64,000 nt of DNA from Gammaproteobacteria bacterium. Its GTDB lineage: Bacteria > Pseudomonadota > Gammaproteobacteria > Pseudomonadales > Pseudohongiellaceae. The position numbers were made by a program, and so were the translations under genes. The notes under the pieces were generated by a model. It searched no databases. It worked only from the letters and a program-made list of their open reading frames with translations, and was not told where the DNA came from. Positions within the stretch are counted from its first letter, which is position 1; every line of letters begins with the position of its first letter. The stretch covers positions 53,929-117,928 of the forward strand of contig CANJTS010000008.1 in the NCBI GenBank assembly GCA_947477655.1, given 5' to 3'. This document shows positions 20,630 to 62,577 of this stretch, piece after piece.

Positions 20630-20658
20630 CACTCTATTAGATCTAACAGGAGTTGAGC

Positions 20659-21538: not shown

Positions 21539-22597
21539 ATGGCGAGTAAACTCTACAGCTTGTTGTTCACTACAATCCTTTCACTTTTTTTTATCCATAA
21601 TGTCAGTGCGCATCATTCCCGATCTGCTTTCTACGACACTACACAATTGATTCAATTGGAAGGTGAAATAACCCGTGTATTGTGGCGTCATCCACATGTA
21701 CGTTACTGGATGCAGGCTGATCAAGCCAGTGGCGGCGGCTTGTGGGAATTAGAAACAACCCCGCCCAGTATTTTGGAACGTGAAGGGATAAATAAGGAAT
21801 TAGTTGCTGTCGGTACTCGCGTGCGAGTAGCGGGGCCACCTGCACGTTTTACTGCTAATGCTATGGAGGTTAGTCATGTCCTGTTGCCCGACGGTCGTGA
21901 AGTTCATCTGTACGCTAATCTTGACACCTTATGGTCAGAGCAGACTGTAGAGCGATCTTTGCAGGCTTTTGATCCTGCCGCAGTTGTAGCAGCTCAAGCT
22001 TCTGCCAAGGGGATTTTCCGCGTATGGAGTCGGGAAGGCGGCGTCAATAATCAGCCGCGTTTCTGGTTAAACGAATATCCTCTTACTGATTCTGCCGTTA
22101 CTGCAGCCGCCGCCTGGGATGTGTTGGTAGATACTGATACTGGCTGTAATGCGAAAGGCTTTCCCAATATCATGAGTAATATCTGGCCTTTTGAATTTGT
22201 AGATGAGGGTGAACAGATTCGATTAAAGATCGAAGAATTTGACCAGCAAAGAATTGTGTATTTGGTTAACAGTTCTGCACAACACGCACCTTCGCCAATG
22301 GGATATTCTTTGGGACATTGGGAAGGATCAGACTTGGTAGTAACAACCCGTGATTTTTCACCTGCGTATTTTGGTGCGGCGGGTATTGAACTAGGATCTT
22401 CAGCAGAGATCGTAGAGCGTTTTATATTGAGTGCTGATGCCAACCGCCTTGATTATCAGATGACAGTAACTGATCCGGCCACTTTTACTGGGCCCGTTAC
22501 CCAAAGTTCTTACTGGATATGGCGACCTGGTGAAATCCTCAAACCTTACGATTGTGTAGAAGTTCCAGAATCGTGGACTACCTCCAAAAACAAGTAG
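21539..22597 (+). CDS. Secreted two-domain protein, paralogue 1 (DUF6152-like N-domain plus conserved C-domain), function unknown
   Basis: GAGGTG Shine-Dalgarno sequence. Signal peptide with predicted cleavage VSA/HHSRSAFYD. Motif W.HPH. C-domain GHWEG.DLVV.T. Cys in DTGCNAKGFP and KPYDCVE. Paralogous to 58022-59155 and 59188-60057. Confidence 0.75.
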   Translation: MASKLYSLLFTTILSLFFIHNVSAHHSRSAFYDTTQLIQLEGEITRVLWRHPHVRYWMQADQASGGGLWELETTPPSILEREGINKELVAVGTRVRVAGPPARFTANAMEVSHVLLPDGREVHLYANLDTLWSEQTVERSLQAFDPAAVVAAQASAKGIFRVWSREGGVNNQPRFWLNEYPLTDSAVTAAAAWDVLVDTDTGCNAKGFPNIMSNIWPFEFVDEGEQIRLKIEEFDQQRIVYLVNSSAQHAPSPMGYSLGHWEGSDLVVTTRDFSPAYFGAAGIELGSSAEIVERFILSADANRLDYQMTVTDPATFTGPVTQSSYWIWRPGEILKPYDCVEVPESWTTSKNK

Positions 22598-22681: not shown

Positions 22682-23098
22682 ATGCCTGCGGTTTTGCTAG
22701 CACTCACTGGTGTTGGTGTTGCCTTAAATGGATACAACTTTAAGATTGGTAGTCTTACTGCGATGGGACCGGGTTTTATGCCATTGGTGTTGGGTATGGG
22801 TTTGGTATTGTTGGCCCTACTTTTATTTTGGACTGCTTGGAATACTGCAGAAGAAACTGTAACAGCGTTGCCAATGCGTCCTTTGCTATTTGTTGGGGCA
22901 GGTATGTTGAGTTGGTATCTGCTCATAGACACCTTGGGTTTTTTCCCGGCTAGTCTCGCGCAACTATTATTATGTTCCTGTGCCATGCCTCAGCAACTTT
23001 GGTTTAAACAAACTCTATTAATGCTGGTCGTGGCCATAACAGGTTACGGTTTGTTTGTGGTTTTTCTCGGCGTGCCTGTTTCGCCATTTGGTTCTTGA
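22682..23098 (+). CDS. tctB: Tripartite tricarboxylate transporter small membrane subunit
   Basis: About 140 aa, four hydrophobic segments, immediately upstream of TctA with a 1-nt gap. Confidence 0.65.
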   Translation: MPAVLLALTGVGVALNGYNFKIGSLTAMGPGFMPLVLGMGLVLLALLLFWTAWNTAEETVTALPMRPLLFVGAGMLSWYLLIDTLGFFPASLAQLLLCSCAMPQQLWFKQTLLMLVVAITGYGLFVVFLGVPVSPFGS

Positions 23099-23099
23099 T

Positions 23100-24599: not shown

Positions 24600-24630
24600 A
24601 TTGAGTACTATAAAAGCCAAGATCACGCAG

Positions 24631-36613: not shown

Positions 36614-36657
36614 ATTTACTCCAACGGTCTGTACGCTTTGTTGCTGCTGATTGCTGC

Positions 36658-37968
36658 TTACACTTCAGCAAATGCGCCGGTGCTGTCACCAAAAGATTCT
36701 TCGGCAATGCCAGCACGATTTAGCATGGTGAGCAGCAAGTTAGCTTGCGGCGTATCTTGGGGGTAAAGTAGATGTTGGCCGCCTTTTATTGTGCCAGCAC
36801 CGCGGCCAAAGATCGCGTTGGGCTGCGGATCGTGGTTATGTTTGTCGCTGTTACTCATGTTCGAACCAAATAGAATAATTGAGTTGTCGAGTACTGTGCT
36901 GTTGCCTTCTGGCATGGCGTCCAGTTTTTCGAGGAAATAATTGAAAACGCTGGTATGGAAAGCTTGTACTTTTGCCAGCCGGCCCATTTTTTCGGGATCA
37001 TCACCGTGGTGAGACAGCGGATGGAAAGCATCAGCCACACCGATATTAGTATAGGTACGCATACTGACTTCTTTTTCCATCATCATACTGGCGACATGGG
37101 TCAGATTGATCTGGTAAGACAGCGCAACTAAGTCGAACATGATTTTCAGATGATCTTCAAAGCTGGTGGGGATGCCAACCGGTGCATTAGGAATTTCGAC
37201 ATTACTCAAGTCCTGACTTTTCATCATCTGAACGCGGCGTTCAATTTCGCGCACTGATTCCAGATAGTCAGACACCATTGCCGTATCTGCTGCACCCAAT
37301 TTACGTTGCAAGGAAGAGGCATCACCCATGATGGAATCGAGAATACTACCGGTTTGATCAACGATTGCTGCGCGTTCTGCGGCATCATCGCCTTGGCCAA
37401 ACAACTGGAAAAACAGTTTGCGCGGGTTGGTTTCAATGGGCAGTGACTGTTGTGGGGTACGGAATGACAGGGAAGATCCAAAGGAACAGGAATAACCTGG
37501 TGCACAGGGGCCGCCATTGGGCGTGCCTACTTCGATGGAAGGGAAGGTAGTACCTTGACCAATATAACGTGCAGCGATTTGGTCGGCGGTGGTGCCTTTG
37601 CTCGGATCACTCACATCGTTGGGCGCAACGCAACGTAACCAGGTGCCGGCCACAATGCCGTGTGGGTCGTTGCTTTCAGCGGGTTTGTTGCGCAAGCCGG
37701 AAATAATAGTCATACGATCTTTGAATTTGGCTGCCGGCGCCAGAATTTCCGGTACTACAAAATCAGTACCAACAGTGGTGGGTGTCCACTTGCTCATTAC
37801 CGCGCCATGCGGAAAAAATACGAAACCCATTCGCGCTTGGGGATTGGCAGCAGTTTGTGCCCACGCAGTAGACGCAGGAATCATCGCGTCCAGCAGCGGC
37901 AAAGCCACTGAGCTACCCAAACCGCGTAGTACCATTCGACGTGATAAATGCTTTTTGGTGATAAACAT
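36658..37968 (-). CDS. DUF1552-family protein with twin-arginine signal
   Basis: MFITKKHLSRRMVLRGLGSSVALPLLDAM is the typical DUF1552 N-terminus. C-terminal ..FGSNMSNSDKHNHD.. metal-site-like motif. Confidence 0.75.
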   Translation of the reverse strand: MFITKKHLSRRMVLRGLGSSVALPLLDAMIPASTAWAQTAANPQARMGFVFFPHGAVMSKWTPTTVGTDFVVPEILAPAAKFKDRMTIISGLRNKPAESNDPHGIVAGTWLRCVAPNDVSDPSKGTTADQIAARYIGQGTTFPSIEVGTPNGGPCAPGYSCSFGSSLSFRTPQQSLPIETNPRKLFFQLFGQGDDAAERAAIVDQTGSILDSIMGDASSLQRKLGAADTAMVSDYLESVREIERRVQMMKSQDLSNVEIPNAPVGIPTSFEDHLKIMFDLVALSYQINLTHVASMMMEKEVSMRTYTNIGVADAFHPLSHHGDDPEKMGRLAKVQAFHTSVFNYFLEKLDAMPEGNSTVLDNSIILFGSNMSNSDKHNHDPQPNAIFGRGAGTIKGGQHLLYPQDTPQANLLLTMLNRAGIAEESFGDSTGAFAEV

Positions 37969-38000
37969 GGACTTTCTCCCTCGTGGGTAGTTGTGCGCAA

Positions 38001-40565: not shown

Positions 40566-40678
40566 GATGCTTACCCATCAATCTATTACAGCTATATTCA
40601 TTAAATTTTTTTTGTATGAGACCGGATTTAACCAGCCTGTCGCTGCAGTTCGTTAAATAAAGTCTGTACAGATAATTT

Positions 40679-41602
40679 TCAGGCATCTGGTGTGTAATGC
40701 GGAATCAGACTCCAGTGGGACAGTTCGATAAACATATCCGAAGCTCCCAATTGCCCCTCAAATGTGCCTGCAGGTTTGGCTGCCAAGGTTTCGGGCACAT
40801 TACTCGCCTGCATGAATAACTCACGCACACTGGCAAAAATCTGGGCATACATATCACGCATGACCACCAGTTGCGCTTTGGTCATTACGGGGCCGGTCGC
40901 AGGTACGATAATAGTGCTGTCGTTGGCAATGCTGAGGAGGGTTTCTATGCCGTCTACCAAGCCACCTATCCATCCACCCGTCCACCAGTCCATCAATGGC
41001 CAAGCATCAGTGGAAATAATACCGCCAGTGTGCAACACGTTGTCGGTCGGCAAAAAAATGTACATGTCGCCATCTGTATGAGCTTGACGCATATAACCGT
41101 ATTCAACCACATCATTACCATGAGGCATGTTGCCGTAGTGATAAAAAATTTCTGTGGGTAAGGCTTGTGCAGGAAGGGGTTCGAAAATGACATCTTCCCA
41201 GGGCCGTTCGATACTTGTGCCCAACCATTGGCGAGTATTTTCATGCGCAAAAATTTTAGTATCACGATTGCCTAGTTCTTCATTCAAACCGGTTTGTTCG
41301 CGATGCCAGTGGGTGTTGATCAAAGTAGATATGCGGCGACTATCGAGTGTGCGTTCAATAGTGCTTCTTAGCGCAGCAGCGTTGGCTTGCAACCCACCAT
41401 CCACTACCAGTAATTCGCTGTTGGCAGCTTTTTTTACTAAAACATTGCAACCACTGCCAGTAATTAAAGCAGTAGTTGAATTGATGCTCTGCACCGCTAG
41501 ATTGGTGTTTTGCGCCAATAGTTTTTGATTCAAACCTTGGCTCAATACCAAAGTAGCACTAGCACTCATGGAGAATTGCAGTAAATTTCTACGGTTAATC
41601 AT
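40679..41602 (-). CDS. MBL-fold protein with twin-arginine signal and a variant metal motif
   Basis: MINRRNLLQFSMSASATLVLS. The MBL motif position reads THWHREQTG instead of HxHxDH. Later candidate ligand positions are FAHENT, HTDGD and LHTGG. Confidence 0.7.
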   Translation of the reverse strand: MINRRNLLQFSMSASATLVLSQGLNQKLLAQNTNLAVQSINSTTALITGSGCNVLVKKAANSELLVVDGGLQANAAALRSTIERTLDSRRISTLINTHWHREQTGLNEELGNRDTKIFAHENTRQWLGTSIERPWEDVIFEPLPAQALPTEIFYHYGNMPHGNDVVEYGYMRQAHTDGDMYIFLPTDNVLHTGGIISTDAWPLMDWWTGGWIGGLVDGIETLLSIANDSTIIVPATGPVMTKAQLVVMRDMYAQIFASVRELFMQASNVPETLAAKPAGTFEGQLGASDMFIELSHWSLIPHYTPDA

Positions 41603-49757: not shown

Positions 49758-50564
49758 ATGAAACTTTCGTCAGCGATGTTGTCTTTGTTAATCATTGGTT
49801 GTTTAGCAATTAGCAATGGCTGCAGTGATTCTACAGATACCAGCACCGCGCTAATCGACCCAGTCGACAATGCCCGCATAACAGCCATGCGTACTCAATT
49901 AAAAACCCTAAAACTAGAGGCTCAGCGTGTCTTTGATTCCAACTCGATCAAACGTTTGCAGCGTGCCTACGGTTATTATGTTGAAGAAGCTTTGTGGGAT
50001 GAAGTCGTCAATCTTTTTGCAGATAACGCTACTTTAGAGATGGCTAGGGATGGTGTTTACATAGGCAAGGATCGTATTCGTGCTTATTTTTATGCGCTCA
50101 ATGACGGTCAGCAGGGTTTACATACAGGTCAACTTAATGAGCAGTTGCAACTGATGCCTGTGGTGACACTGAGTGCAGATGGTTTGACCGCAAAAGCACG
50201 CTGGCGCAATCTTATGTTACGTGGCCAGTTGGGTGAAAATGCTTATTGGGGCGAAGGTCCGTTTGAAAACGAGTATGTAAAAGAAAATGGCATATGGAAA
50301 TTCAGCAAGGTGCGTTGGCAACAAGCAGTTTTGGTGTCTTATGCAGGAGGTTGGGCAAAAAATAAAGATGCCAACAATGGTATCTGGGTGTCCGATACTT
50401 TGCCCGCAGATGCGCCTCCTACTGATGATCACGGTGCTTGGCCCCAAACTTATTTGCCGCCTTTCTCCTTTGCCAATCCAGTGGGAACCTATTTACCCGC
50501 TGCAGCGTTAAATGCCGAGCCTGCAACCACAGCTGTTGGAGCAACTACAGGAGCACCGCAATAA
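49758..50564 (+). CDS. Lipoprotein with one SnoaL/NTF2-like module
   Basis: Lipobox AISNGC. Module ..RLQRAYGYYVEE.LWDEV..LFADNATLE.. ending in ..YLPPFSFANPVG. Confidence 0.7.
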   Translation: MKLSSAMLSLLIIGCLAISNGCSDSTDTSTALIDPVDNARITAMRTQLKTLKLEAQRVFDSNSIKRLQRAYGYYVEEALWDEVVNLFADNATLEMARDGVYIGKDRIRAYFYALNDGQQGLHTGQLNEQLQLMPVVTLSADGLTAKARWRNLMLRGQLGENAYWGEGPFENEYVKENGIWKFSKVRWQQAVLVSYAGGWAKNKDANNGIWVSDTLPADAPPTDDHGAWPQTYLPPFSFANPVGTYLPAAALNAEPATTAVGATTGAPQ

Positions 50565-51928
50565 TGCATATTGCAAACTTCACTGCTTTAATCACGCGCC
50601 TGCCCTTAATCGTTGTTACTGTTTTTCTGACACTAGTGCATGCGTCTGTATTAGCGCAGCAACCATCACCAGAATTAGAACAAATGGCTGCAGAAATAGC
50701 GCAGTTGCAAGCCGATATTGCCAACATGGAAGCGGAAAACACCATTGAAAATCTACAAGGGATTTTTGGTTTTTACATCGACAAGAATCAGTGGTCACAA
50801 GCTGCAGACTTATTTGCTGATGACGGCACTGTTGAAATCAGTGGTGAAGGTGTTTATGTGGGAAAAGCGCACATAACGCAGTATTTCGAGAGTAAAGGCA
50901 GTGCGGGTCCGCAACCAGGAATACTAAATGAGCACATGCAATTACAACCCGTTATTACGGTGTATACCGGTGGCACCGCCAAAGGCCGCTGGCATCATTT
51001 TTCCCAGGAGGCAGTAGCCGGCGTCAGTCATCATTGGGGCACGGGTATTTATGAAAATGAATATGTATTGCAGAATGGTGTTTGGAAAATCAGCAAGCTC
51101 CATCTGTATTCCTCGATGCGCACACCGTATGACGCTGGTTGGGGTGTTACTGCTTTACCAGTCACCACACCTAGTGCAACCTTACCACCTGATCTGCCGC
51201 CCACCATTGTCTATGAAAATTATCCAGCCGTTTTCGTGCCGCCTTTCCATTATGAAAATCCTGTCACCGGTGCTGTGACCTCAACAGACATAGCTACAGA
51301 AACTCAGCAGTTCAATACTCTGGATGCCATGGAACTGGCATTAGTAAATGCGCAAACACGTGTAGGCCTGTTAACGGATGCCGATGCAGTAGAACGATTG
51401 CATACCATCTATGGCTATTACCTGGCTCACAACCAGTGGGATGAACTGGCTGGTATTTTTACTGAAGATGGCAGTATCGAAATTGCGCTGCGGGGAATTT
51501 ACTTGGGCCGTGCCGGGGTGCGACGCAATTTGGATTTATATGGTGTCCAAAGTGAACTTGAAGGCACGTTACACAACCATATGCAATATCAGCCGGTAAT
51601 TCATATAGCCGCCGATGGCCAAAGCGCCTTGATGCGTTCAAGAGCTTTCAGCATGATGGGAAATTACGAAGGTGTGGGGCGCTGGATGGGCGGCATCTAT
51701 GAGAATAAATTTGTGAAACGCGATGGCATATGGCAAATAGAAAAGGACCAGGTCATCAACACTTATTTTGCAGTTTACGATGAAGGCTGGAAAGATCTTG
51801 CACTACGTCCCGCACCAGGAATTAATGCTGCCAATCCGCCCGATGCGCCACCCAGTGTATATTTTGAAATGTATCCAAGTGCTTATTTACCGGCCTATCA
51901 CTACAAAAATCCGGTAACAGGATTATAA
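50564..51928 (+). CDS. Secreted protein with two tandem SnoaL/NTF2-like modules
   Basis: The ATG overlaps the upstream stop (TAATG). Signal peptide ..HASVLA/QQ. Two modules end in VFVPPFHYENPVTG and YLPAYHYKNPVTG. Confidence 0.7.
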   Translation: MHIANFTALITRLPLIVVTVFLTLVHASVLAQQPSPELEQMAAEIAQLQADIANMEAENTIENLQGIFGFYIDKNQWSQAADLFADDGTVEISGEGVYVGKAHITQYFESKGSAGPQPGILNEHMQLQPVITVYTGGTAKGRWHHFSQEAVAGVSHHWGTGIYENEYVLQNGVWKISKLHLYSSMRTPYDAGWGVTALPVTTPSATLPPDLPPTIVYENYPAVFVPPFHYENPVTGAVTSTDIATETQQFNTLDAMELALVNAQTRVGLLTDADAVERLHTIYGYYLAHNQWDELAGIFTEDGSIEIALRGIYLGRAGVRRNLDLYGVQSELEGTLHNHMQYQPVIHIAADGQSALMRSRAFSMMGNYEGVGRWMGGIYENKFVKRDGIWQIEKDQVINTYFAVYDEGWKDLALRPAPGINAANPPDAPPSVYFEMYPSAYLPAYHYKNPVTGL

Positions 51929-51971: not shown

Positions 51972-53213
51972 TTACTGGGCTGGCATTATGCGCAACACCG
52001 CACCGTCTTTTTCTTCTGTTGCTACATAAATAAATCCATCCGGTCCTTGTCTCACATCGCGAATACGCTGGTGTAGATCAACCAGCAGACTTTCGCGGCG
52101 TAGTTCTTCCATGTTTTCATTTAGCACTATGCGTTCTACATGGCCGGTGCCGGGTACTTCTCCCATACGCAAGCCGCCCACAAACAAACCGCCGGTCCAT
52201 TGGCGCATGACATCACTAGTATAAAAAGTCATACCCGATACAGCGATAGCTGGCATCCAGTACACCACGGGTGGTTCAAAACCAACATGGTTGGGGCCAT
52301 CACCTTGCCAGGGGCCGGTGTAATTTCGACCTAAACTTACGATGGGCCAACCGTAATTGGCACCTGCTTTTAGGATGTTGATTTCGTCGCCGCCATTAGG
52401 ACCATTTTCGTTTTGCCACATAACCCCTGTGCCCGGATGCAGCGCCAACCCTAGCGAATTGCGATGACCGTAGGTGTACACATCTTTGCGAGCATTAGGC
52501 GTGTTAACAAAGGGATTGTCAGTGGGGATGCTGCCATCGTCGTTGATACGCATAACCTTGCCACCGGCAGTGTTAAGGTCTTGCGGATCGTTGCCACTGG
52601 TGGTGATGAATAAGCTGCCATCATTGCCAAAGGCTAAACGGGTAGCGCCATTGACGGTTGCTTCGCCGCCCCAGATATCTTTGAAATCTACCAAGGTTGT
52701 GCCTGTCCAACGGCCTCTGCCAATTGCTACACCATGTTCATCATTAGGCAAGGGTTTGGTGTAGGCCAAATAAATCATTTGGTTATTAGCAAAATCTGGA
52801 TGCAGGGCGATGTCGAGATAGCCATGCACAGTTGCTGGCGCACCCGATTCGCCGCGGAAAACTGAAGGTGGGCCACCCATAATTTCGGTGGTGGTGCCAT
52901 TTTTCAGCAGATGAATTTTGCCGGGACGCGACACTACCAAAATACCTCCATCAGGCAGAAAGGTAAGTGCCATGGGTAATTCGATGCCACGTGCGACAAC
53001 TTCAACCTTGATGTTCAACCCTTCGGCGGTTGCGTAGGTCCAGGGTCCGGCACCCAATTTCTGGCCGGCTATACCTGTGGGGGCAACCGGAATGCCGCCG
53101 TTAAAGGCAACACTTTGCTGAGCCATAACAGCTGTAGAAATAAAACAGCCTAAAAATAACGGCATGGTGAACATGCGTGTGGTTTTGATGTTGAACAGTC
53201 TATTTTTAATCAT
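51972..53213 (-). CDS. PQQ-dependent sugar dehydrogenase (soluble aldose/sorbosone dehydrogenase, YliI-like)
   Basis: Signal peptide. GHRNSLGLALHP.TG..W..ENGPNGGDEIN....G.NYGWP signature. Confidence 0.8.
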   Translation of the reverse strand: MIKNRLFNIKTTRMFTMPLFLGCFISTAVMAQQSVAFNGGIPVAPTGIAGQKLGAGPWTYATAEGLNIKVEVVARGIELPMALTFLPDGGILVVSRPGKIHLLKNGTTTEIMGGPPSVFRGESGAPATVHGYLDIALHPDFANNQMIYLAYTKPLPNDEHGVAIGRGRWTGTTLVDFKDIWGGEATVNGATRLAFGNDGSLFITTSGNDPQDLNTAGGKVMRINDDGSIPTDNPFVNTPNARKDVYTYGHRNSLGLALHPGTGVMWQNENGPNGGDEINILKAGANYGWPIVSLGRNYTGPWQGDGPNHVGFEPPVVYWMPAIAVSGMTFYTSDVMRQWTGGLFVGGLRMGEVPGTGHVERIVLNENMEELRRESLLVDLHQRIRDVRQGPDGFIYVATEEKDGAVLRIMPAQ

Positions 53214-53334
53214 GGTGCACCCTTTATTGTGCAAAACGTGGTTTGTATGTTTTTGTTTTGGATAAAAAAGCCGGGTTGATTACACCACTTATGGCGCTAG
53301 ATGGGAACTTGCAGCAGGGGGTCAAGGTGTTTTA

Positions 53335-53552: not shown

Positions 53553-54449
53553 GTGGTTATTAATTCTTCATTACATGCAGCGCTGGAACTCTTTATTGCT
53601 AAAGAAAAACTGCCTTCTACTTATTTAGACACTGTAGAACAGTGGTTTTTACCCTTGGCAGAACAAATTCTGCATAAAGTGTCACGCAGCAACCAAGCGT
53701 TGCTAGTAGGTGTCAGTGGCTGTCAGGGCAGTGGCAAGTCAACCTTGGCCGAGTTGTTGGTGATGTTGCTCAAAGAATTAATGGGGCTCAATTGCATTAA
53801 TTTATCGATAGATGACTTTTATCTTACTTATGCCGAGCGTCAAACTCTGGCGCGGACGGTGCATCCGCTCTTGGCGACCCGAGGTGTGCCGGGCACACAC
53901 GATATTGAGCTGGCCATCTCTACCATTAATAAATTGCGCGCAAGTGGTCATGTCAACATTCCACGTTTTAATAAAGCAATTGACGATCGTTTACCAGTAG
54001 CAGATTGGCAACGCAAACAAGCACCGGTGGACGTCATTGTGCTGGAAGGGTGGTGTCTGGCTGTGCCAGCGCAGTCTGAGCAGGAGTTGTTGCCGGCGCT
54101 TAATGTGCTCGAACAGCAGGAAGACCCTACTGGCATTTGGCGCAACCATGTCAATGAACAAATCCGCACGGTATATACGCCGTTTTACAACATGATCGAC
54201 TACTTGATAATGCTCAAGGCTCCGGACTTTGCCAAGGTGTTTGAGTGGCGCCAAAATCAGGAAAATAAACTCGCAGCCTTGCAAGCAGCAGGGCAAAAAA
54301 ATCGGGTGATGAACAAGGAGCAACTAATACGGTTTATTCATCATTACGAACGGGTAACCCGCCATGGTTTAAAAATATTGCCCCAGCGGGCAGATGTGGT
54401 ATTCGAATTAACAGATGCACAGACGATTAACGGTAGATTAACTGGGTGA
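53553..54449 (+). CDS. P-loop kinase (COG4240 / D-glycerate 3-kinase-like)
   Basis: Walker A GVSGCQGSGKST, LSIDDFYL and GWC motifs. GTG start. Confidence 0.6.
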   Translation: MVINSSLHAALELFIAKEKLPSTYLDTVEQWFLPLAEQILHKVSRSNQALLVGVSGCQGSGKSTLAELLVMLLKELMGLNCINLSIDDFYLTYAERQTLARTVHPLLATRGVPGTHDIELAISTINKLRASGHVNIPRFNKAIDDRLPVADWQRKQAPVDVIVLEGWCLAVPAQSEQELLPALNVLEQQEDPTGIWRNHVNEQIRTVYTPFYNMIDYLIMLKAPDFAKVFEWRQNQENKLAALQAAGQKNRVMNKEQLIRFIHHYERVTRHGLKILPQRADVVFELTDAQTINGRLTG

Positions 54450-54681
54450 GCGCAGATGCTTGGTTTTAAAAAGTCTGACATCACCCATACAAGGCATTCT
54501 TATTTGCTGTTTTATGTAAGAAATATGGAACATTTAATTGCATTAGTGCTTGACGGTATTTTTGCACACAAGCAGATGTTACTGTCTGATAAGCATTTTA
54601 TATTATGAAATGCCCAGTAATAAAATAACGCTACTAAACAAATGCAGACTGCGGCTCTTAACTGAAAAAGGGGGATATGTA

Positions 54682-57600
54682 ATGTATGCAACTAGGAACA
54701 AAAAAATAAAAGTAGGTCGTGTTTTTCCAAGTTCGGCGCTAACCGCTGTAATTGCTAGCATAACGGCTAGCACAGTGATGGCGGCGCAGCTTGAAGAGAT
54801 AACCGTTACTGGCTCGCGTATCCAACGCGATGTGGGCTTCGAGTCCGCTGCGCCAATCACGGCGCTGTTGTCGGCAGAGCTAACTTTGTTTGAACCCGGC
54901 TTGGGTGTTTCTCAACAATTGGCTAATTTGCCCCAGTTTTTCAACAACGTCAGCTCCGATGATATTGCCGGTCGGGTCGGGGGCGATGTTGGTCAGAGCC
55001 AGCTCAACATGCGCGGCATGGGCGGAGAGCGCACCTTGGTACTGCTGGATGGTATGCGCGTAGTGCCTTCCGACAGTCGCAGTTCAGTGTCAGTCGATTA
55101 TCTCCCTAGTCCGCTAATTCAGCGCACCGATATCGTCACTGGCGGCGCGTCTGCGGCCTATGGTTCCGGCGCCCTGACAGGCGTGACTAATTTTGTTATC
55201 AACCGTCAGTTTACCGGTCTCAAGATCACTGCCCGCGGTGGTATCAACGAATTTAACGGTGATGGTCAGAACACACGCTTTACTGCGGCCTGGGGTCGTG
55301 ACTTTTTAGAGGGCGACCGGCTTCATTTGGTAGGATCACTAGAGATTAGAAATAACCGTGAATTCCGTCGGGCTAGGCCCGATGCGTTTGAATTGGACTG
55401 GGATAAATTTTCAGGCTATGTGACCAACCCCGCATGGGTGGCATGGCGAGCAGCTACCCCGGCCAGTGTACTGGCAAGCGCGGCCCCTGTGCCGTTGCGG
55501 CTTTCTGCACAGGGTATAACCTCCACCTCATGGACCGCGACCGGCCTCATCCGTCAGGCCGGATTCTCCTTAGACCGTTACTCGTTCACCGAAGCCGGTA
55601 CTGGTGTTCAGCCGTTCCAGACCCAGAACTGCGATCTCGTTTCTCTACCCAGCGCCTCAGGCTCACAGTCGAACATGGCATGTAATGACTCTTCCTATCA
55701 GTACCAATTGTTCCGAAAAGGCCGTTACATTGAAGACAGAGTGCGCCTCGGGGTTGCCTTGCAAACCGGTTTTCTAGGAGCGGATTTTCAGCTTACAGAC
55801 ACCACCAAACTGTGGGGTCATGTGCTGTATGGTCGCACTATGAATTCTTCTCCACCGACCCAGACCGGTCAGCATGAGGGCATATCCTACGAGACCGTCT
55901 TTTCAGGCAACCCTTATCTGCCGGCAGTTGTGCAGCAAGCTATGACCACCGAGAAGCGCACCAGTATCCGTGTAGACCAGAACGGTTTTTCGGATATTCC
56001 TTGGGGCTTCCAAGAACGCCCAGTGGTTACCAATTACATGTATTCCGTGACCGGGGGCTTCGACACCCAGTTGTGGGGCGATTGGAATATGAAAGGCTCG
56101 CTTACTTCGGGCTATGCCAACAAACACAGCGTGCTCAACAATTGGGAACGCAACGACCGTTTCTTTATGGCGCATGACGCGGTGAAGGATCCGGAGACCG
56201 GCAACATCGTATGTCGGATTCAAACTATCGCCCGTGATTTCCAGCGCAAAGGCCGCAATCTGGAAGCTGAACTAAATGCTTGGGCTCAAAAAAATACTTC
56301 GGTCTATCCTACCGAAGGGTTAAATCCCTACGAGAAAGCCATCCCACTGAAATATCCTTTCGCAGTGGACAGCATCGACGGCACTATTAAGGATTGTGTG
56401 CCAGTGAATATGTTCGGTAAGGGCAATCAGTCCGAAGCAGCCATGCGGTATATATTCTCGGGCCGCAACAAGACTGCTAATTCCACGCAAAAGCAAGATT
56501 TCGCCGAGATTGTAGCCAACGGTACTGTTTACGAAAATTGGGGTCCTGGTGCGATTTCAGGTGCTATTGGCGCCAACTATCGCAAAGAATCCATTTCCCA
56601 AATTGTGCTTGATCCAGATATCGATACTCTTGGGCCACCCTATAACGTGACATTGCCTGACGGCACTGTGGTGATGCGCGGCATTCCCCCACAAATACAA
56701 ACCGGTAGCGCCAACCTGCACCGTTTCAGTAGCCAGCCATCTTACGGTGGCGGCTTCGATGTTACAGAGATGTTTGCCGAAACAATCGTGCCGTTGTTTG
56801 ATTCAGTCGATGGGCCGCAGTATGCCGAACTCAACCTAGCTGCTCGCCATGCCGACTACTCGCGCGCTGGTAAGGTGTGGGTATGGAAGGCGGGCCTGAG
56901 TTTCCAGGTGCTGGAAGACCTGCGTCTGCGCGGTACTTATTCCCACGATATGCGCGAGGGTTCATTTCGCGAACTCTTCACACAACAAGGTGGCGGTGGT
57001 ACTCCTACAGATCCGGAGCCAACCAAAGAGACTCCCACCGGCCCGGCGGTTACCAATAGATCGTACCTAATCTCCAGCCTTGCTGGCGGCAATCCAGACA
57101 TCGCGCCTGAGCAAGCCGATACTACTGCGATGGGTTTTGTCTATCAGCCGTCCTTCATCGACGGACTTCAGTTGTCACTGGACCGCTATGTAGTGAAGTT
57201 GGATCCATCTATCGTGCAATACACGGTGCAACAAATCGTTGATCAGTGCTTTCAATCCAAAATATATTGTGACCGCATCGACCGTGATCCGGTTACCAAT
57301 CAAATTGGGATGATCAGAAATCTCTTCGTTAACTCAGATAAGGCTAGGGTTAGCGGCTGGGATACAGAAATATCCTATCGCATGGAACCTGACTTTCTTG
57401 CCAACCAGGCTGAATCAATGAATCTACGACTAGTGGGCGGTTTAATGGATGAAAATTCCATTACCCCAAAAGGCGGTATCACGATCGAGCGCGCTGGCCA
57501 GTCAGACATGCCAAAAGAAATGGTGACCATCATGGGTGCCTATAATTTTGGCGACTATGGCGTTAATTTGGTACAGACCTGGGCCGGTAAGTCCAAAAGA

Positions 57601-57828
57601 AACAACACTTGGGTAGAAGGGGTTGATGTGGATAGCAACAATGTCCCTTCTTGGCATAACACCAACTTGGGTTTTTCCTGGAATGTAGAGTCAGAATTAC
57701 TTGGCTTCTGGTCGGCGTCCTTCAATGTCACCAATGTGTTCAACCGGGGTGCGATACAACGCGGCAGCACCACTTCGGGAGACGAAGTTGGGCGGCGCTA
57801 TTCGTTGGGGTTCGAAACTTCTTTTTAA
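54682..57828 (+). CDS. TonB-dependent receptor
   Basis: AAGGGGG Shine-Dalgarno sequence. Signal peptide ..STVMA/AQLEEITVTGSRI and plug motifs (R.DIV.GGASA.YGS.A..GV.N). About 1048 aa. Terminal ..YSLGFETSF. Confidence 0.9.
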   Translation: MYATRNKKIKVGRVFPSSALTAVIASITASTVMAAQLEEITVTGSRIQRDVGFESAAPITALLSAELTLFEPGLGVSQQLANLPQFFNNVSSDDIAGRVGGDVGQSQLNMRGMGGERTLVLLDGMRVVPSDSRSSVSVDYLPSPLIQRTDIVTGGASAAYGSGALTGVTNFVINRQFTGLKITARGGINEFNGDGQNTRFTAAWGRDFLEGDRLHLVGSLEIRNNREFRRARPDAFELDWDKFSGYVTNPAWVAWRAATPASVLASAAPVPLRLSAQGITSTSWTATGLIRQAGFSLDRYSFTEAGTGVQPFQTQNCDLVSLPSASGSQSNMACNDSSYQYQLFRKGRYIEDRVRLGVALQTGFLGADFQLTDTTKLWGHVLYGRTMNSSPPTQTGQHEGISYETVFSGNPYLPAVVQQAMTTEKRTSIRVDQNGFSDIPWGFQERPVVTNYMYSVTGGFDTQLWGDWNMKGSLTSGYANKHSVLNNWERNDRFFMAHDAVKDPETGNIVCRIQTIARDFQRKGRNLEAELNAWAQKNTSVYPTEGLNPYEKAIPLKYPFAVDSIDGTIKDCVPVNMFGKGNQSEAAMRYIFSGRNKTANSTQKQDFAEIVANGTVYENWGPGAISGAIGANYRKESISQIVLDPDIDTLGPPYNVTLPDGTVVMRGIPPQIQTGSANLHRFSSQPSYGGGFDVTEMFAETIVPLFDSVDGPQYAELNLAARHADYSRAGKVWVWKAGLSFQVLEDLRLRGTYSHDMREGSFRELFTQQGGGGTPTDPEPTKETPTGPAVTNRSYLISSLAGGNPDIAPEQADTTAMGFVYQPSFIDGLQLSLDRYVVKLDPSIVQYTVQQIVDQCFQSKIYCDRIDRDPVTNQIGMIRNLFVNSDKARVSGWDTEISYRMEPDFLANQAESMNLRLVGGLMDENSITPKGGITIERAGQSDMPKEMVTIMGAYNFGDYGVNLVQTWAGKSKRNNTWVEGVDVDSNNVPSWHNTNLGFSWNVESELLGFWSASFNVTNVFNRGAIQRGSTTSGDEVGRRYSLGFETSF

Positions 57829-58021
57829 GCAACCTTGATATTTTTATATCCACAGTATGAAAGGAGGCCAAGGATGGCTCTCTTCCATCCCCTTAATATG
57901 CTTGAGTAATACAGGACGTGGAATGATTCGAGTTAATGTGCCTGCCCATAAAGAACACATGTCACCGCCGACCATGTGTTAACCAGGGCTGTACATTCTT
58001 TTTAAACAACCGGGAGTTGTT

Positions 58022-59155
58022 ATGAAAAAGCAATATATACAATGCCGCCTTATTACAGTAACGGCAGTTCTGGCAGCGTTTTACGCGCCCTACGTTTTGG
58101 CACATCATCCCGTATCAGCCAAGTTCGACACGACACAGTCGGTAACACTCACCGGTCGCGTGACGGAAGTCGACTGGGCCAATCCCCACACCCACATTTT
58201 CATGAGCGTGGAAGACAAATCCGGCGCCGTCAAGAACTGGGCAATCGAACTGGAAAGTCCTATCGAACTCGAGTGGGGCGGTTGGCGACCAGACACACTT
58301 GCCATAGGCGCTGTGATCACGGTTGAAGGGCCATTAGCCCGCAATGGCACTGGGCAGATCTGGGCCAACAGCATCATCAAGGAAGACGGCAACAGCGTGT
58401 TCGATCTGCCCGATAACATTCTTGAATCGCAATTGGGATCTCGCGTGGAAGGTCCCGCGCCGCGCTGGCCCGACGGTCATCCCCGGCTTGGTTCAGAACC
58501 TGGGCAAAGCGGCTATTGGTCCGTGCCGAGCCAACATTCGCTTGTGGAAAGCGGGGTGAGTGTGGCGATGGACAAGCATGGCATCCTCGCCAATATCGAA
58601 GATGCTGCAAGTGTTGCTCCTTTCCAAGACTGGGCACGCGATCTTTACGTTATACGCCAGCAGAATTTCATGAAAGATGATCCTCTGTTTCTTTACTGCA
58701 TCCCACCCGGTGGACCACGCATGTTCCAGGTTCCGTACGGTGTGCAGTTTCTCGAGCAGCCCATCCATCAGCGCGTCACCGTGCTAATGGGCGGTGGCAA
58801 CAGTAACTGGCGTTTGATCCACCTGGATGGCCGCGAGCAGATAGGCCAGGTGACTGGCAACGACAACAATCCGCTTTTTTTTGGCCGTGGCCTAGGTCGT
58901 TGGGAAGGAGACAGCTTTGTGGTGGACAGCAACGGCTTCAACGAAAGCTTTTGGTTTTCCAACGGTGGCCTACCACATACCAGTCAGTTGCACTTGATAG
59001 AACGCTTCACACGTGTTGACCTCAACACGCTGCAGTACGAAGTGACAATTGATGATCCCGGGGCCTACACCCGCGAATGGAAAAGTGCATGGACATTACT
59101 CTGGGTGGCGAACAAAGACCTGCCGGATCATTATTGCCAGGATAACCGCCCCTGA
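58022..59155 (+). CDS. Secreted two-domain protein, paralogue 2 (DUF6152-like N-domain plus conserved C-domain), function unknown
   Basis: Signal peptide with predicted cleavage VLA/HHPVSAKFD (His codons at 58103-58108). W.NPH motif. C-domain ..YCIPPGGPR..GRWEGDSFVVDSNGF..GLPHTSQLHLIERFTR..IDDPGAYT..W...YCQDN. Confidence 0.8.
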   Translation: MKKQYIQCRLITVTAVLAAFYAPYVLAHHPVSAKFDTTQSVTLTGRVTEVDWANPHTHIFMSVEDKSGAVKNWAIELESPIELEWGGWRPDTLAIGAVITVEGPLARNGTGQIWANSIIKEDGNSVFDLPDNILESQLGSRVEGPAPRWPDGHPRLGSEPGQSGYWSVPSQHSLVESGVSVAMDKHGILANIEDAASVAPFQDWARDLYVIRQQNFMKDDPLFLYCIPPGGPRMFQVPYGVQFLEQPIHQRVTVLMGGGNSNWRLIHLDGREQIGQVTGNDNNPLFFGRGLGRWEGDSFVVDSNGFNESFWFSNGGLPHTSQLHLIERFTRVDLNTLQYEVTIDDPGAYTREWKSAWTLLWVANKDLPDHYCQDNRP

Positions 59156-59187
59156 TTCACGCTGACCCTACTATGAGTGAACATCCA

Positions 59188-60057
59188 ATGAAAAACACAT
59201 TCAAGCGCAATTCTGGAATTTTTATGCTGGCACCGTTACTCGCGGTGCTGGGCGCGTGTTCGCAGTCTGATGAAAGCATAACCGAGCAAACTAAATCCGC
59301 TGTAACACAAACTACAACTGTAACTGCCGATGGTCCGCCACGCCTTGAAGACGGCAGTGTAAACCTCGGACCGCCTCCGGGCTCGATGGGCTTCTGGACC
59401 GCGAACAACGGTAGGCTCGTCAATGATCCCAATAATTACGAGGCTGCCCGCAGGGAAATGAATTCGCGCGTTAACATCGAGGATGCACCGCTGCAACCCT
59501 GGACACTCGCGCTCACTAACTATCGGCAAGACACATTTATCGCGAGTGAGCCCTACACCCGTTGCAAGCCAGCAGGTGGTCCGCGCCAGATCATGTCGCC
59601 TTATGGTTTTGAGATCGTGCAGATGCCAGAGATGGAGCGTGTCTACATACTTACTGTATCCAATGCGATGAGCTACCGCACAATTTACATGGACGGCCGC
59701 GAGCATCCGGCTGAGATTCTCCGTCCCACCTACCTGGGCCACTCCATTGGTCACTGGGAAGGCGACACGTTGGTCATCGATACAGTTGGCTTTAGCGAAC
59801 GCTCATGGACAAACCGCGACGGTTTACCCACTACAGACAAGCTTCACCTCACCGAACGTTTGACACGCAGCAGCCTTAACGACATGGACTACACCTTTAC
59901 CATAGATGATCCGGGTGCTTACACCGCGCCATGGACGAGCGGTTTCGGCGTGGAATGGAACGCCGACCAAGAAGTGTTCGAGTACATGTGCCAAGAAAAC
60001 AACATTTCGCCAGCGGCGATGGTGGGAGAGGGAAGGTTGAGTATTATCGTGCCGTAG
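59188..60057 (+). CDS. Lipoprotein, paralogue 3 (C-domain only), function unknown
   Basis: Lipobox LAVLGAC. ..RCKPAGGPR..GHWEGDTLVIDTVGF..GLPTTDKLHLTERLTR..IDDPGAYTAPW..YMCQEN aligns with the C-terminal half of 58022-59155. Confidence 0.75.
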   Translation: MKNTFKRNSGIFMLAPLLAVLGACSQSDESITEQTKSAVTQTTTVTADGPPRLEDGSVNLGPPPGSMGFWTANNGRLVNDPNNYEAARREMNSRVNIEDAPLQPWTLALTNYRQDTFIASEPYTRCKPAGGPRQIMSPYGFEIVQMPEMERVYILTVSNAMSYRTIYMDGREHPAEILRPTYLGHSIGHWEGDTLVIDTVGFSERSWTNRDGLPTTDKLHLTERLTRSSLNDMDYTFTIDDPGAYTAPWTSGFGVEWNADQEVFEYMCQENNISPAAMVGEGRLSIIVP

Positions 60058-60103
60058 GATGGATGCTTAATTAGTATCAGCAGATGTGCCCGGGCTGTCT
60101 TAG

Positions 60104-60155
60104 CTTAAGAGTTTGGCTTAAGAATTTGGCTTAGGCATTTGTCTTAAGAGTTTCG
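60104..60155. repeat. 13-bp direct tandem repeat, four units
   Basis: cttaagagtttgg / cttaagaatttgg / cttaggcatttgt / cttaagagtttcg, in the convergent gap between paralogue 3 and the PQQ-ADH gene. Confidence 0.85.
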
Positions 60156-60232
60156 CGGATCATCACTGACACCAAAATAGGCACACACCAGATCTCCGCC
60201 CGTCTTCAAAATAAGGAGAGCAACTAACCACA

Positions 60233-62299
60233 TTATTTCGCCAATAGTTCTGTTGTTAGATAAGTAGCAACATCATGTGCCTGTTCCGGAGTAAGTACCG
60301 AGCGGAAATTGGGCATGGCATTGCGACCGGTGCCGAGCATGTTCATGATGTCTTGCATGGTTAACAACTCGGTTAATTGCGCGCCACCCCCATGCCCCCC
60401 TTCACCCGTTTCACCGTGGCAATACACACAAGATTGTTGGTAAATAGTTAAACCAACAGCAACATCAGCCACCCGACCTTCCGGTATAGTAATTGCCGTA
60501 GCTGCACCACCTGCAGTCGGGGCTGCAGCAGGTACTTCGTTCAGAATTCCTTTGAGTGAAAACAGCCACACACCATCGCCTTTCTGGCCGCCAAATAAAC
60601 CGCCGCCGGCATAAGTAGTAATGTATTGTTCACCCTTATACATGAAGGTACTTACCGAAGAATTGATAGGTGCATCGGTACGAAATTCCCACACACGTTC
60701 ACCATTGGTGGCATCAAGGGCAATCAAGCGACCATCATTGCGCCCCATAAACACCAGTCCTCCTGCGGTAACCAAAGAGCCGCTACGACAGCCATCATTG
60801 AATTGTTTTTGCCAAACGACTTTATTTGTTTTCAGATCGAGCGCCGAATAAATACCACGTCTGATTAGTCCTGCTCCCACATAAGCACCACCCAAAAATT
60901 GGCCTTCGAAAGTGGGATCTTCATATTGGGAGGCATCGGCTCGCGCTGCATTGGCGGTATCGGTGGCACAGATATACATAGTCTGAGTGGTGGGATCGTA
61001 GGCGCTTGGTGGCCAGTTAACCCCTGCCAGCGGAGTGAAAACGACGGGTTTGTCAAAAAAGGGCGTAAATATCCGACCCTGATTTACCAGTTCATAATTT
61101 TCAGGTGCATAAGCCACATCAAGCGGTATCAGAGAATCTCCCACGGGGTAGGGCTGGGTTGCCGCAGTTGCCTGCCGTGGTTCTTGCAGCACAGCTTTTT
61201 CGTCAATGCCCAGCAGAGGTGCACCGGTTAGCCGGTCAAGAATATAAACCCAGCCAGTCTTGCCGGCCTGGGCCAGCCCTTTGCGCATTACGCCGTTGTA
61301 TTCGGCTTCAAACAGAATGATTGGGTTGGGCGCATCGTAGTCCCAGATATCGTGATGCACTTCTTGAAAATGCCAGCGGTATTCCCCCGTGTGTACATCA
61401 AGTGCAACGATGGAGGCAGTGAACAAGTTGTCGCCGGGACGAACAGCACCCCCTAAAACCGGACCCGCATTGCCAGTAGAAAAATAAATCAGACCTGCCT
61501 GTGCATCGATTGCTGGTGTATGCCAGATGGGCGCACCGCCAAACTGCCACACATCGTTGTCAGCGGGCCAAGTGTCATGGCCGAATTCGCCGGGGCCTGG
61601 AATAGTATAAAAAGTCCAAATTTCGCTACCGTCTTTGGCGTTGTAAGCTTTGATACGGCCACGTGTTCCCAAATCACCACCAGCGTAGCCGGTAATCACC
61701 ATGCCTTCGTAATAAAGCGGGGCAGCTGTCAGGCTGTAACCCACCTTGGGGTCACCGCCTTGAATCGACCAGACAATTTCGCCGGTCTTTTGATCAAGTG
61801 CAATTAATTTGGCATCTAGTTGTCCGACAAAAATTTTTCCATCACCAATGCCAAGACCACGACTTACCCAGCCACAACATACAAACGCATCATCGGGCAG
61901 CAAATTGGAATGGTAAGACCACAATATTTTTCCGCTTTCTACACTGATGGCAAAAACATCGTTTTGCCCAGTAATAATGTAGATCACGCCGTCGTAGACC
62001 AGCGGTTGCGCCTGGTTGTTATGCCGGAATTCCAAAGCAGAATTCAAGCCTGTGCGCCACACACCTTTTAAATTAGCGACATTGTCTTTATTGATTAGGG
62101 TCAGAGGGGAATAACGTTGATTGGACAGCGAGCCGCCGTTGGTGATCCAGCCATCGTCTTGTGGGTTGGACAATTGCTCAATGGAAAAGGCTGGCGCTGG
62201 TGTAATAGCTTCGGCAGCCAACGTGGCAGTGCAAAAAACAGACGAACACACAGCAACAAGAGTTAGTCGGAGTGCGTAATAATAAGTAAATGAAAACAT
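60233..62299 (-). CDS. Quinohaemoprotein (type II) PQQ-dependent alcohol dehydrogenase
   Basis: Start at MFSFTYYY.. with a signal peptide. Vicinal Cys-Cys (DAFVCCGW) typical of PQQ-ADHs, propeller W-motifs, and a C-terminal cytochrome c domain with CVYCH. Confidence 0.9.
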   Translation of the reverse strand: MFSFTYYYALRLTLVAVCSSVFCTATLAAEAITPAPAFSIEQLSNPQDDGWITNGGSLSNQRYSPLTLINKDNVANLKGVWRTGLNSALEFRHNNQAQPLVYDGVIYIITGQNDVFAISVESGKILWSYHSNLLPDDAFVCCGWVSRGLGIGDGKIFVGQLDAKLIALDQKTGEIVWSIQGGDPKVGYSLTAAPLYYEGMVITGYAGGDLGTRGRIKAYNAKDGSEIWTFYTIPGPGEFGHDTWPADNDVWQFGGAPIWHTPAIDAQAGLIYFSTGNAGPVLGGAVRPGDNLFTASIVALDVHTGEYRWHFQEVHHDIWDYDAPNPIILFEAEYNGVMRKGLAQAGKTGWVYILDRLTGAPLLGIDEKAVLQEPRQATAATQPYPVGDSLIPLDVAYAPENYELVNQGRIFTPFFDKPVVFTPLAGVNWPPSAYDPTTQTMYICATDTANAARADASQYEDPTFEGQFLGGAYVGAGLIRRGIYSALDLKTNKVVWQKQFNDGCRSGSLVTAGGLVFMGRNDGRLIALDATNGERVWEFRTDAPINSSVSTFMYKGEQYITTYAGGGLFGGQKGDGVWLFSLKGILNEVPAAAPTAGGAATAITIPEGRVADVAVGLTIYQQSCVYCHGETGEGGHGGGAQLTELLTMQDIMNMLGTGRNAMPNFRSVLTPEQAHDVATYLTTELLAK

Positions 62300-62577
62300 G
62301 GGTGTTTCCTTTAAGAACATAAAGACAGATACAAGGCGGTTACGGGGCATCGTGATTATAGCCAAATAATTAGGCAGAACACGCAGTCTTGTTATGAATT
62401 CCACGGACTATTTAACAATGGATTTGCACATAATTAGTTAGACAATAATGGTTACACAGACCCTTTTTACAGAACAAATATTTCAATCTATTTGTGGGGT
62501 TATTCGCGATAATTTTGACAAACATCTTGTGTTAATCTCACCATATTGAGTATTAACGCTTCGATCAGGAAAGCTTC

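Follow-up and report, generated by a model that had tools for sequence, protein, structure and literature searches.

Exported DUF6152 proteins with a conserved, predicted N-terminal histidine unit, and the gene module around them, in a Pseudohongiellaceae bacterium

What might an exported protein do if it is predicted to start, after removal of its leader, with two histidines? This question is raised by three genes, here called A, B and C, in a 64,000-nucleotide stretch ("the window") of contig CANJTS010000008.1 (positions 53,929 to 117,928; assembly GCA_947477655.1) from a Gammaproteobacteria bacterium of the Pseudohongiellaceae. A preliminary description, made from the letters of the window, had presented their products as a family of secreted paralogues and suggested that they resemble copper "histidine brace" proteins. 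We found that A, B and C are paralogues, predicted to be exported to the periplasm, and have no characterised or solved relative. Our tentative reading, to which we give slightly less than even weight, is that they are periplasmic parts of a widespread uncharacterised module with an N-terminal-histidine metal site, in which A and B together handle the cargo of a TonB-dependent receptor.

The histidine unit of the N-domain

In pairwise BLASTP, A and C aligned over their full length at 24% identity (E 1e-21), A and B at 38% over 234 columns of the C-domain (E 8e-54), and C and B at 29% over 150 columns (E 1e-13). This bears out the earlier proposal of a three-member family in which A and C share a two-domain layout and B consists of the C-domain alone. 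No other family member turned up when the window was scanned with a profile in all six frames. The likeness of the N-domain to DUF6152, noted before, was confirmed by the Pfam model (PF19649, gathering threshold 27 bits), which matched A at 76.2 bits (E 2.3e-21) and C at 54.0 bits (E 1.9e-14), and did not match B. By exact look-up, A and B are on public record from a Pseudohongiellaceae metagenome-assembled genome (MAG), as MFN0001225.1, "DUF6152 family protein", and MFN0001224.1, "hypothetical protein ACKVOF_00280"; a second possible ATG for B lies at 59173. An AlphaFold2 (AF2) model of A, built on a 32-sequence alignment, was a confident two-domain structure (predicted local distance difference test, pLDDT, 82.7; predicted template-modelling score, pTM, 0.80). 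In a Foldseek comparison with the PDB only its N-domain was matched, by the classical oligonucleotide/oligosaccharide-binding (OB) folds of PriB, SSB and the anticodon-binding N-domain of LysRS, at a Foldseek probability of 1.0 and a template-modelling (TM) score, on the target, of 0.5-0.63. The order of strands and helices in the model fits a closed barrel of five strands in which a helix follows strand 3 and precedes strand 4.

The mature ends of A and C were then compared with those of their homologues. A reads ...YVLA/HHPVSAKFD...DWANPHTH, with cleavage predicted between A27 and H28, and C reads ...NVSA/HHSRSAFYD...LWRHPHVR, the second motif being W-R-H-P52-H53-V-R55; the cleavage sites of A, B and C are rule-based predictions from the -3/-1 rule and conservation. 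Of 120 A-type and 120 C-type homologues, 118 and 116 (234 of 240 in all) had a hydrophobic leader followed by HH; in the remaining six the gene call is truncated or starts at the wrong place. Alanine precedes HH at position -1 in 96-97% of the leaders, including 115 of 118 of the A-type. The Pro-His histidine, previously placed about 28 residues after the first, lies exactly 28 residues from it in every A-type and in 111 C-type sequences. Among 363 unique N-domains, drawn from all subfamilies and including stand-alone DUF6152 proteins, H28, H29 and H56 (numbering of A) were each conserved at 0.99, as was E76, with P55 at 1.00, W52 at 0.96 and D36 at 0.93, and most other positions were variable. 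Position 58, the second histidine of the PHTH sequence, depends on the subfamily (H in 190, R in 107, W in 56). A mean-field direct coupling analysis of the 363 N-domains (effective number of sequences, Meff, 184), applied to the N-terminal segment and the loop between strands 1 and 2, gave as top pairs i/i+4 gap artefacts and was discarded.

The strongest support for the earlier idea that the N-terminal and distal histidines act together came from natural variants. In a sample of about 500 N-domains (the 363 unique ones and 137 from a metagenome scan), H56 was replaced in only five, and in all five the N-terminal HH was gone as well. Four are fused, two-domain proteins: L083 (4099-5229), with HH changed to ER and H56 to Y; L067 (1374-2537), to HQ and Q; L095 (2818-4113), to QP and R; and L156 (81-1196), to QH and Y. 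No full-length sequence in the sample had lost HH alone or H56 alone, and a relative 84% identical to the L083 protein keeps both. Since the replacements and the lineages differ, these are independent loss events. The fifth variant, P0397, is the most telling. Its OB domain stands behind another domain (D, described below) in a natural fusion and so has no free amino terminus; HH is absent and H56 is R, which fits a site that needs a free N-terminus. H58, D36, E76 and the whole C-domain are kept where H56 is replaced. H58 is therefore outside the conserved unit, being specific to the A-type subfamily, and this part of the earlier motif did not hold. For the rest, the pattern is what one would expect of a single site formed by the first two histidines, His56 and the free N-terminus.

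We propose a metal site because His-His, Pro-His and the spacing of 28 are conserved, because the histidines are lost together, and because a free N-terminus appears to be needed. Sec export and signal-peptidase cleavage would expose His-His on the small OB-fold domain of A and C, where the two histidines, the free amino group and the histidine 28 residues on, probably with Glu76, would make one mononuclear, histidine-brace-like site. Strand 3 of the model, at whose end Glu76 stands, finishes alongside the beginning of strand 2, with which it pairs; this would place Glu76 next to the H56 loop. Cu(II) would be the most likely metal by analogy with the histidine-brace proteins, and zinc or nickel would suit a three-histidine site equally well.

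The barrel domain, protein B and the gene module

For the C-domain a separate model of B was used, because the two-domain model of A had returned matches to OB folds only. The AF2 model of B (pLDDT 73) is an up-and-down strand meander, and its top PDB matches were all of calycin type (tardigrade SAHS4, FABP7, streptavidin, bile-acid and retinoid binders, and nitrophorin), at weak scores (Foldseek E 0.03-0.5, TM at most 0.51). On this model, the C-domain of A would be a calycin-like beta-barrel. Neither the C-domain nor B was matched by Pfam or NCBIfam, including the lipocalin and FABP families of Pfam, and PDB sequence searches with single sequences and with profiles gave nothing below E 0.4; the domain could be assigned to no characterised family. 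The cysteine pair reported before in the three proteins (C203 and C339 in C) proved general, both columns being cysteine in 100% of 371 unique C-domains. The two cysteines are candidates for a disulfide in the barrel. The loops that carry them, C-x-P-x-G-G-P-R and the C-terminal Y-C-Q-(D/E)-N, are the most conserved and yet the least confident parts of both models; in A the domain ends in an invariant YCQDNRP. Seven arginines are also conserved, which suggests that the ligand of the barrel is small and probably anionic.

These barrel features raise an alternative in which no metal is involved. The proteins would be ligand carriers or periplasmic binding proteins, whose barrel takes a hydrophobic or anionic nutrient from the receptor and hands it to enzymes or inner-membrane transporters, and whose histidines serve folding, pH sensing or docking. 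The fatty-acid, retinoid and bile-acid binding proteins, avidins and nitrophorins among the matches fit this view, as do the seven arginines, the intact C-domain of the variants without histidines, and the many paralogues per genome beside catabolic genes, MFS (major facilitator superfamily) and Tct transporters and TonB receptors. We nevertheless consider it unlikely, since a carrier leaves unexplained the 99% conservation, exact spacing and strict co-loss of the three histidines and their dependence on a free N-terminus, as well as the separate histidine triad of B-type proteins described next. In addition, 55-60% identity across phyla is high for a protein of diversifying specificity, and the fold matches are weak even at their best (E 0.03).

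Protein B differs from A in its leader and in its own histidines. The preliminary description had called it a lipoprotein, and its leader does fit the lipobox pattern ([LVI]-x-[GAS]-C after a hydrophobic stretch); among the orthologues, however, only the close ones (P0128, P0131, P0138) retain it, and the distant ones have ordinary signal peptides, so the predicted lipidation is specific to a clade. H173, H185 and H220 of B are invariant in 32 of 32 B-type sequences, and from the strand order of the model all three would lie at the same end of the barrel. The three-histidine pattern was found in 39 of 45 barrel-only proteins that follow a fused gene and in 23 of 36 that follow a stand-alone DUF6152 gene; in some small barrel-only proteins other residues stand at all three positions (L-Y-K, for example). 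The C-domains of fused proteins carry Q, R/H/N and H at these positions. Histidine clusters thus recur across the module, the B-type triad being invariant and absent from the fused type. The triad and the clade-specific lipidation had gone unnoticed before, as had the conserved pairing of A with B in a module of four parts.

In order to describe this module we searched 85 related loci with hidden Markov models (HMMs) of both domains, and write F for a fused gene, N for a stand-alone DUF6152 gene and C for a barrel-only gene. F was followed directly by C in 40 loci (F-C), and by N and C in 27 (F-N-C, one of them F-N-C-C); three loci had F-N with no barrel-only gene called, and in seven F had no downstream partner. 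In the remainder the contig ends or no F gene was called. The N- and C-domains were thus fused or adjacent in nearly all of about 81 loci. Because the downstream barrel-only proteins are true orthologues of B (46-58% identity), A and B of the window are a conserved pair. A further secreted family of about 131 residues, D, with the predicted mature N-terminus Q-E-G-H-P-L-x-G-x-W (for example L001 10413-10808 and L006 10515-10913), flanks F-(N)-C in 41 of about 83 loci, upstream, downstream or on both sides; the fullest form is D-F-N-C-D. D had no Pfam match, showed no relationship to the N- or C-domain in hhalign, and is absent from the window. Every part of the module carries an export signal, and no conserved membrane or cytoplasmic component was found among the related loci. 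Natural fusions link all the parts: N-C (A and C), C-C (P0199) and D-N-C (P0397). The module therefore comprises the fused protein, an optional stand-alone DUF6152 protein, the barrel-only protein and often D.

The constant co-occurrence of N- and C-domains, fused or adjacent, would also suit a TIMP-like plug or regulator, in which the N-terminal His-His of the OB domain completes or blocks the metal centre of a partner, so that the site lies between subunits. The partner might be the triad of the barrel-only paralogue or another periplasmic metalloenzyme. There is a precedent, for the N-domain of TIMPs is an OB fold whose first mature residue ligates the catalytic zinc of its partner, and both the need for a free N-terminus and the presence of the triad in barrel-only partners, but not in fused C-domains, would follow. 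The co-loss of H56 with HH argues instead that the OB domain itself provides at least three ligands; moreover, no homology to TIMPs was found, nor any conserved gene nearby for a metalloprotease or other target. We regard such a regulator, with either partner, as very improbable.

To return to the reading we favour, the OB domain would be coupled to the calycin-like barrel within one chain in A and C, and through a neighbouring gene product elsewhere. The barrel would probably be held by the disulfide and would bind the small, probably anionic ligand, and A would work with B, whose three-histidine site would lie at one mouth of the barrel. The features concerned are collected in Table 1.

Table 1. 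Features of genes A, B and C and of the upstream receptor, in window coordinates
Feature	Position	Strand	Basis
Protein A (377 aa), fused F-type: signal peptide, DUF6152 OB-fold domain, modelled calycin-like C-domain	58022..59155	+	Open reading frame (ORF), Pfam, homologues, AF2 model
Predicted Sec signal peptide of A, residues 1-27, ending V-L-A	58022..58102	+	Sequence, -3/-1 rule, conservation
His28-His29, predicted first two residues of mature A	58103..58108	+	0.99 conserved, 363 unique N-domains
OB-fold N-domain (DUF6152) of A, residues 28-125	58103..58396	+	Pfam, Foldseek
W52-A-N-P55-H56-T-H58 loop of A, between strands 1 and 2	58175..58195	+	Conservation, AF2 strands
Glu76 of A, candidate carboxylate ligand, end of strand 3	58247..58249	+	0.99 conserved
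C-domain of A, residues 144-377: PRWPDG...GYW lead-in, then calycin-like barrel (modelled)	58451..59152	+	Invariant residues, model of B
Cys226 of A, in C-x-P-P-G-G-P-R	58697..58699	+	1.00 conserved
Cys372 of A, in Y-C-Q-D-N-R-P	59135..59137	+	1.00 conserved
Protein B (289 aa): paralogue with the barrel domain alone, encoded downstream of A as its conserved partner	59188..60057	+	ORF, BLASTP against A, synteny
Predicted lipoprotein signal peptide of B, lipobox A-V-L-G-A/C24	59188..59259	+	Sequence
Cys126 of B; proposed pair Cys268 at 59989-59991	59563..59565	+	
Histidine triad stretch of B: H173 (59704-59706), H185 (59740-59742), H220 (59845-59847)	59704..59847	+	
Protein C (352 aa): diverged fused paralogue, C-type subfamily	21539..22597	+	ORF, Pfam, BLASTP
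A24-H25-H26 of C, cleavage predicted after A24	21611-21616	+	Sequence
P52-H53 of C	21692-21697	+	Sequence
TonB-dependent receptor directly upstream of A	54550..57828	+	Plug and barrel Pfam domains

Genomic surroundings and the weighing of a function

Directly upstream of A, across a gap of 193 bp, lies the gene of a TonB-dependent receptor of 1,048-1,092 aa, whose likely true start is the ATG at 54682; searches for an equivalog or a close solved relative of it found none. The order receptor-F-C is repeated in the nearest relatives (L007, and twice each in L008 and L026), a Sphingomonadales (Croceibacterium) plasmid has the unfused order N-N-C-receptor, and L087 has FecR and an STN-type receptor followed by two C-type F genes. 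Over the family, a TonB-type barrel was found within 10 kb in about 13 of 84 loci, five independent loci with a proteobacterial receptor and eight with an acidobacterial CarboxypepD_reg barrel. The proposed position downstream of outer-membrane uptake therefore holds in part, for close relatives and some other lineages, but not for the family as a whole. In the source organism the A-B pair would be expressed behind its receptor and would probably capture or process the receptor's cargo, be it a metal, a metal chelate or an organic substrate that needs a metal centre. A scan for promoters and terminators over 54300-60400 was uninformative on whether receptor, A and B form one operon.

Several results weigh against this interpretation. 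Because the C-domain stays intact in variants that lack the histidines, part of the function must be independent of the site. The predicted strand topology of the OB fold would put the beginning of strand 1 near one end of the barrel and the loop that joins it to strand 2 near the other, and for that reason the N-terminal segment, seven residues long, could reach H56 only by folding back over the barrel. Leucine, a residue less favoured by signal peptidase, stands at -3 in 45% of A-type leaders, and for this reason the mature His-His has the standing of a prediction. The upstream neighbours are heterogeneous, with 48 Pfam families of which none occurs in more than two of 69 loci. The conserved neighbours of the related loci included neither genes for the homeostasis of copper, zinc or nickel nor a metal transporter of the inner membrane. 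No Fur box with three or fewer mismatches was found in the whole window, and a Zur-like core match with three mismatches at 54596-54610 (+) is at chance level, about two being expected in the window. Finally, the presence of several paralogues per genome among catabolic genes suits enzymes or binding proteins better than a metal chaperone. Separately, the Zur-like match overlaps the only promoter-like site upstream of the receptor gene. Taken together, paralogue number and catabolic surroundings favour chemistry or binding, and receptor linkage and the bacterial precedents discussed below favour metal trafficking. What we observed directly is the domain architecture, the conservation, the synteny, the fusions and the joint loss of the histidines; the cleavage site, the binding of a metal and its identity, the disulfide, an A-B complex and the link to receptor cargo are all parts of the proposal that we infer.

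If chemistry is preferred, two further readings have to be considered. In the first, DUF6152 domains would be new OB-fold N-terminal-histidine copper centres which, with His-triad barrels and D, form a periplasmic metalloenzyme system that transforms, for example oxidises, small organic substrates, and this system would be abundant in soil Acidobacteriota and aquatic Gammaproteobacteria. We consider it unlikely that the module is a metalloenzyme system of this kind. In the second, the three histidines with Glu76 and Asp36 would form an acid-base or proton-relay site, without metal, of a periplasmic hydrolase or lyase acting on imported organic compounds. The many invariant polar residues and the very high conservation across phyla are compatible with this, and the neighbourhoods are rich in sulfatases, amidohydrolases, LigB and PQQ (pyrroloquinoline quinone) or molybdenum dehydrogenases. 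A requirement for the mature N-terminus is, on the other hand, unusual for acid-base catalysis and typical of metal chelation, OB folds are rarely catalytic, and no similarity to an enzyme family was found by sequence or fold. We think a metal-free catalytic site of this kind very unlikely.

Besides D, no neighbouring family occurred in more than 12 of about 84 loci. PQQ dehydrogenases recurred at 8 loci and a DUF1592/DUF1552/ankyrin block at about 10, and metallo-beta-lactamase-fold proteins were recurrent neighbours as well. In the window, A and B converge on the gene of a PQQ quinohaemoprotein alcohol dehydrogenase (60233-62404, -) with a C-terminal cytochrome c domain and the active-site motif W-D-Y-D-A-P. 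In alignment, its second Asp falls on the Asp with which PedH (WDFDG) and XoxF (WDYDG) coordinate a lanthanide, where the Ca-type quinohaemoprotein alcohol dehydrogenases 1kb0 and 1yiq have Thr, and its top PDB matches were PedH structures (6zcv, 6zcw); judged by this motif, the enzyme may be a lanthanide-dependent quinohaemoprotein. An identical motif, again together with a cytochrome c domain, is found in L085, where the gene adjoins a related F-N-C-D module. A lanthanide function for A and B was rejected, because PQQ enzymes lie near only eight other loci, about half of them with the lanthanide-type Asp, and histidines are poor lanthanide ligands. A block at 34964-41602 (-) in the window encodes an ankyrin-repeat protein, a DUF1552 (HXXSHH) protein, a DUF1592/PSD cytochrome-c-like protein and a metallo-beta-lactamase-fold protein, and in about 10 further loci, of Gammaproteobacteria as well as Acidobacteriota, the same block lies at most 10 kb away from an F-(N)-C module.

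Gene C is placed between a class II aldolase gene with a twin-arginine translocation (Tat) signal and tctBAC. The aldolase/adducin-family protein (20653-21516, +), encoded immediately upstream of C and tctB-tctA-tctC (22655-25659), is related to 3,4-dihydroxyphthalate decarboxylase models, and its twin-arginine-type leader, SRRDMLACLSL..., suggests a periplasmic location, which is unusual for this family. C-type genes can also be numerous: L086 and L087 hold four to six C-type DUF6152 fusion genes per 15 kb, interleaved with genes for sulfatase, arylsulfotransferase, alkyl-sulfatase, amidohydrolase, YceI, molybdenum hydroxylase and a FecR/STN-type TonB receptor. Elsewhere in the window (49758-51928, +), two adjacent or overlapping SnoaL_4 ORFs, one of them a 496-aa ORF with two copies of the domain, adjoin a glucose/sorbosone dehydrogenase (GSDH) gene (51972-53234).

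Relation to known proteins and significance

Copper sites built on an N-terminal histidine are an established class that spans several unrelated folds and is defined by the site rather than the fold; in bacteria the histidine-brace proteins are mostly periplasmic copper handlers, and those that are not lytic polysaccharide monooxygenases (LPMOs) are small periplasmic beta-proteins (PMC10952591). With the known members (LPMOs of families AA9-17, PmoB, CopC, PCuAC/PmoF1, X325/Bim1 and YcnI/DUF1775), A and C share export, the predicted exposure of His1 and a second conserved histidine, here H56. Homology to the brace families (LPMO, CopC, PCuAC, YcnI, X325) was found neither by Pfam or NCBIfam nor by PDB sequence or fold. 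Unlike the brace proteins, A and C have an OB fold in place of an Ig-like, cupredoxin-like, PCuAC or DUF1775 fold, a second histidine directly after the first, and an N-domain obligately coupled to a putative calycin-like domain, and no copper-trafficking genes lie near the family. The papers searched describe no OB-fold histidine brace, and none of them mentions DUF6152 or PF19649. The Pfam entry itself is a model of about 100 residues with function unknown, without the C-domain, the gene module or the histidine unit.

Two well-known envelope proteins come close in other respects. NlpE (CutF) of E. coli is a lipoprotein with lipocalin-like and OB-fold domains and important cysteines that senses copper and redox state in the envelope, and to our knowledge no other characterised protein of the envelope unites a lipocalin-like barrel with an OB fold, functionally important cysteines and a copper-related phenotype. 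Its domain order is the reverse of that in A and C, it has no N-terminal His-His, and it is a single-copy stress sensor, whereas A, B and C belong to a module of many paralogues; no match of the three to the NlpE families in Pfam and NCBIfam was found down to E 1. ZinT (YodA) is a periplasmic zinc-binding protein of calycin-like fold with a histidine-rich mature N-terminus and a three-histidine site. Its three-histidine barrel resembles the triad of B, and its N-terminal histidines resemble those of A and C. ZinT was absent from our Pfam, PDB sequence and Foldseek matches, and, unlike ZinT, the system in the window has no Zur box above chance and no znuABC nearby. Among the calycins (lipocalins, FABPs, avidins and nitrophorins), the core of the C-domain finds its best, though weak, structural matches in the FABP-like and avidin-like up-and-down barrels, and a G-x-W motif precedes its barrel. 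An extended, conserved lead-in, a loop insertion and the invariant Cys and Arg residues set it apart from those families. The Zcp/DUF4198 family is linked to TonB receptors; for the family of A, B and C, this linkage is only partial (about 13 of 84 loci). Zcp/DUF4198, an example of periplasmic metal capture (PMC12663993), differs from A, B and C in both family and fold.

The family is large and widely distributed. A had 3,694 word-indexed homologues and C had 798; B had more than 7,386, none with a Pfam domain. An exhaustive search with a profile of the B alignment gave 15,232 representative clusters (50% identity) at E <=1e-3 and 8,287 at E <=1e-10. The long members of the family are tandem barrels or DUF6152 fusions, and no other known domain was found attached to them. 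A-type proteins are 55-60% identical among Pseudomonadales, Hyphomicrobiales, Vicinamibacterales (Acidobacteriota) and Rokubacteria, and there are several copies per genome, one Vicinamibacterales MAG providing six loci within the top 80.

In summary, the N-domain was known as DUF6152, and what is new, as judged from comparative evidence, is its putative role as a scaffold for N-terminal-histidine periplasmic metalloproteins and the undescribed four-part module to which it belongs. The pattern of co-loss and the natural fusions offer clear and cheap experimental handles, and the natural fused variants of L083, L095, L156 and L067 are ready-made negative controls for metal binding. The barrel domain makes up some 15,000 clusters without a Pfam model, and its obligate partner is a bare DUF. 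Together they make up a conserved and self-contained periplasmic module, which recurs at multiple copies per genome among dominant bacteria of soil (Vicinamibacterales, Terriglobia) and of fresh and marine waters (Pseudohongiellaceae and related groups). Should the His-His/His unit at the N-terminus prove to be a metal centre, the few scaffolds known for N-terminal-histidine metal sites would gain another, and metal handling or oxidative chemistry that has so far escaped notice would be indicated in the periplasm of oligotrophs.

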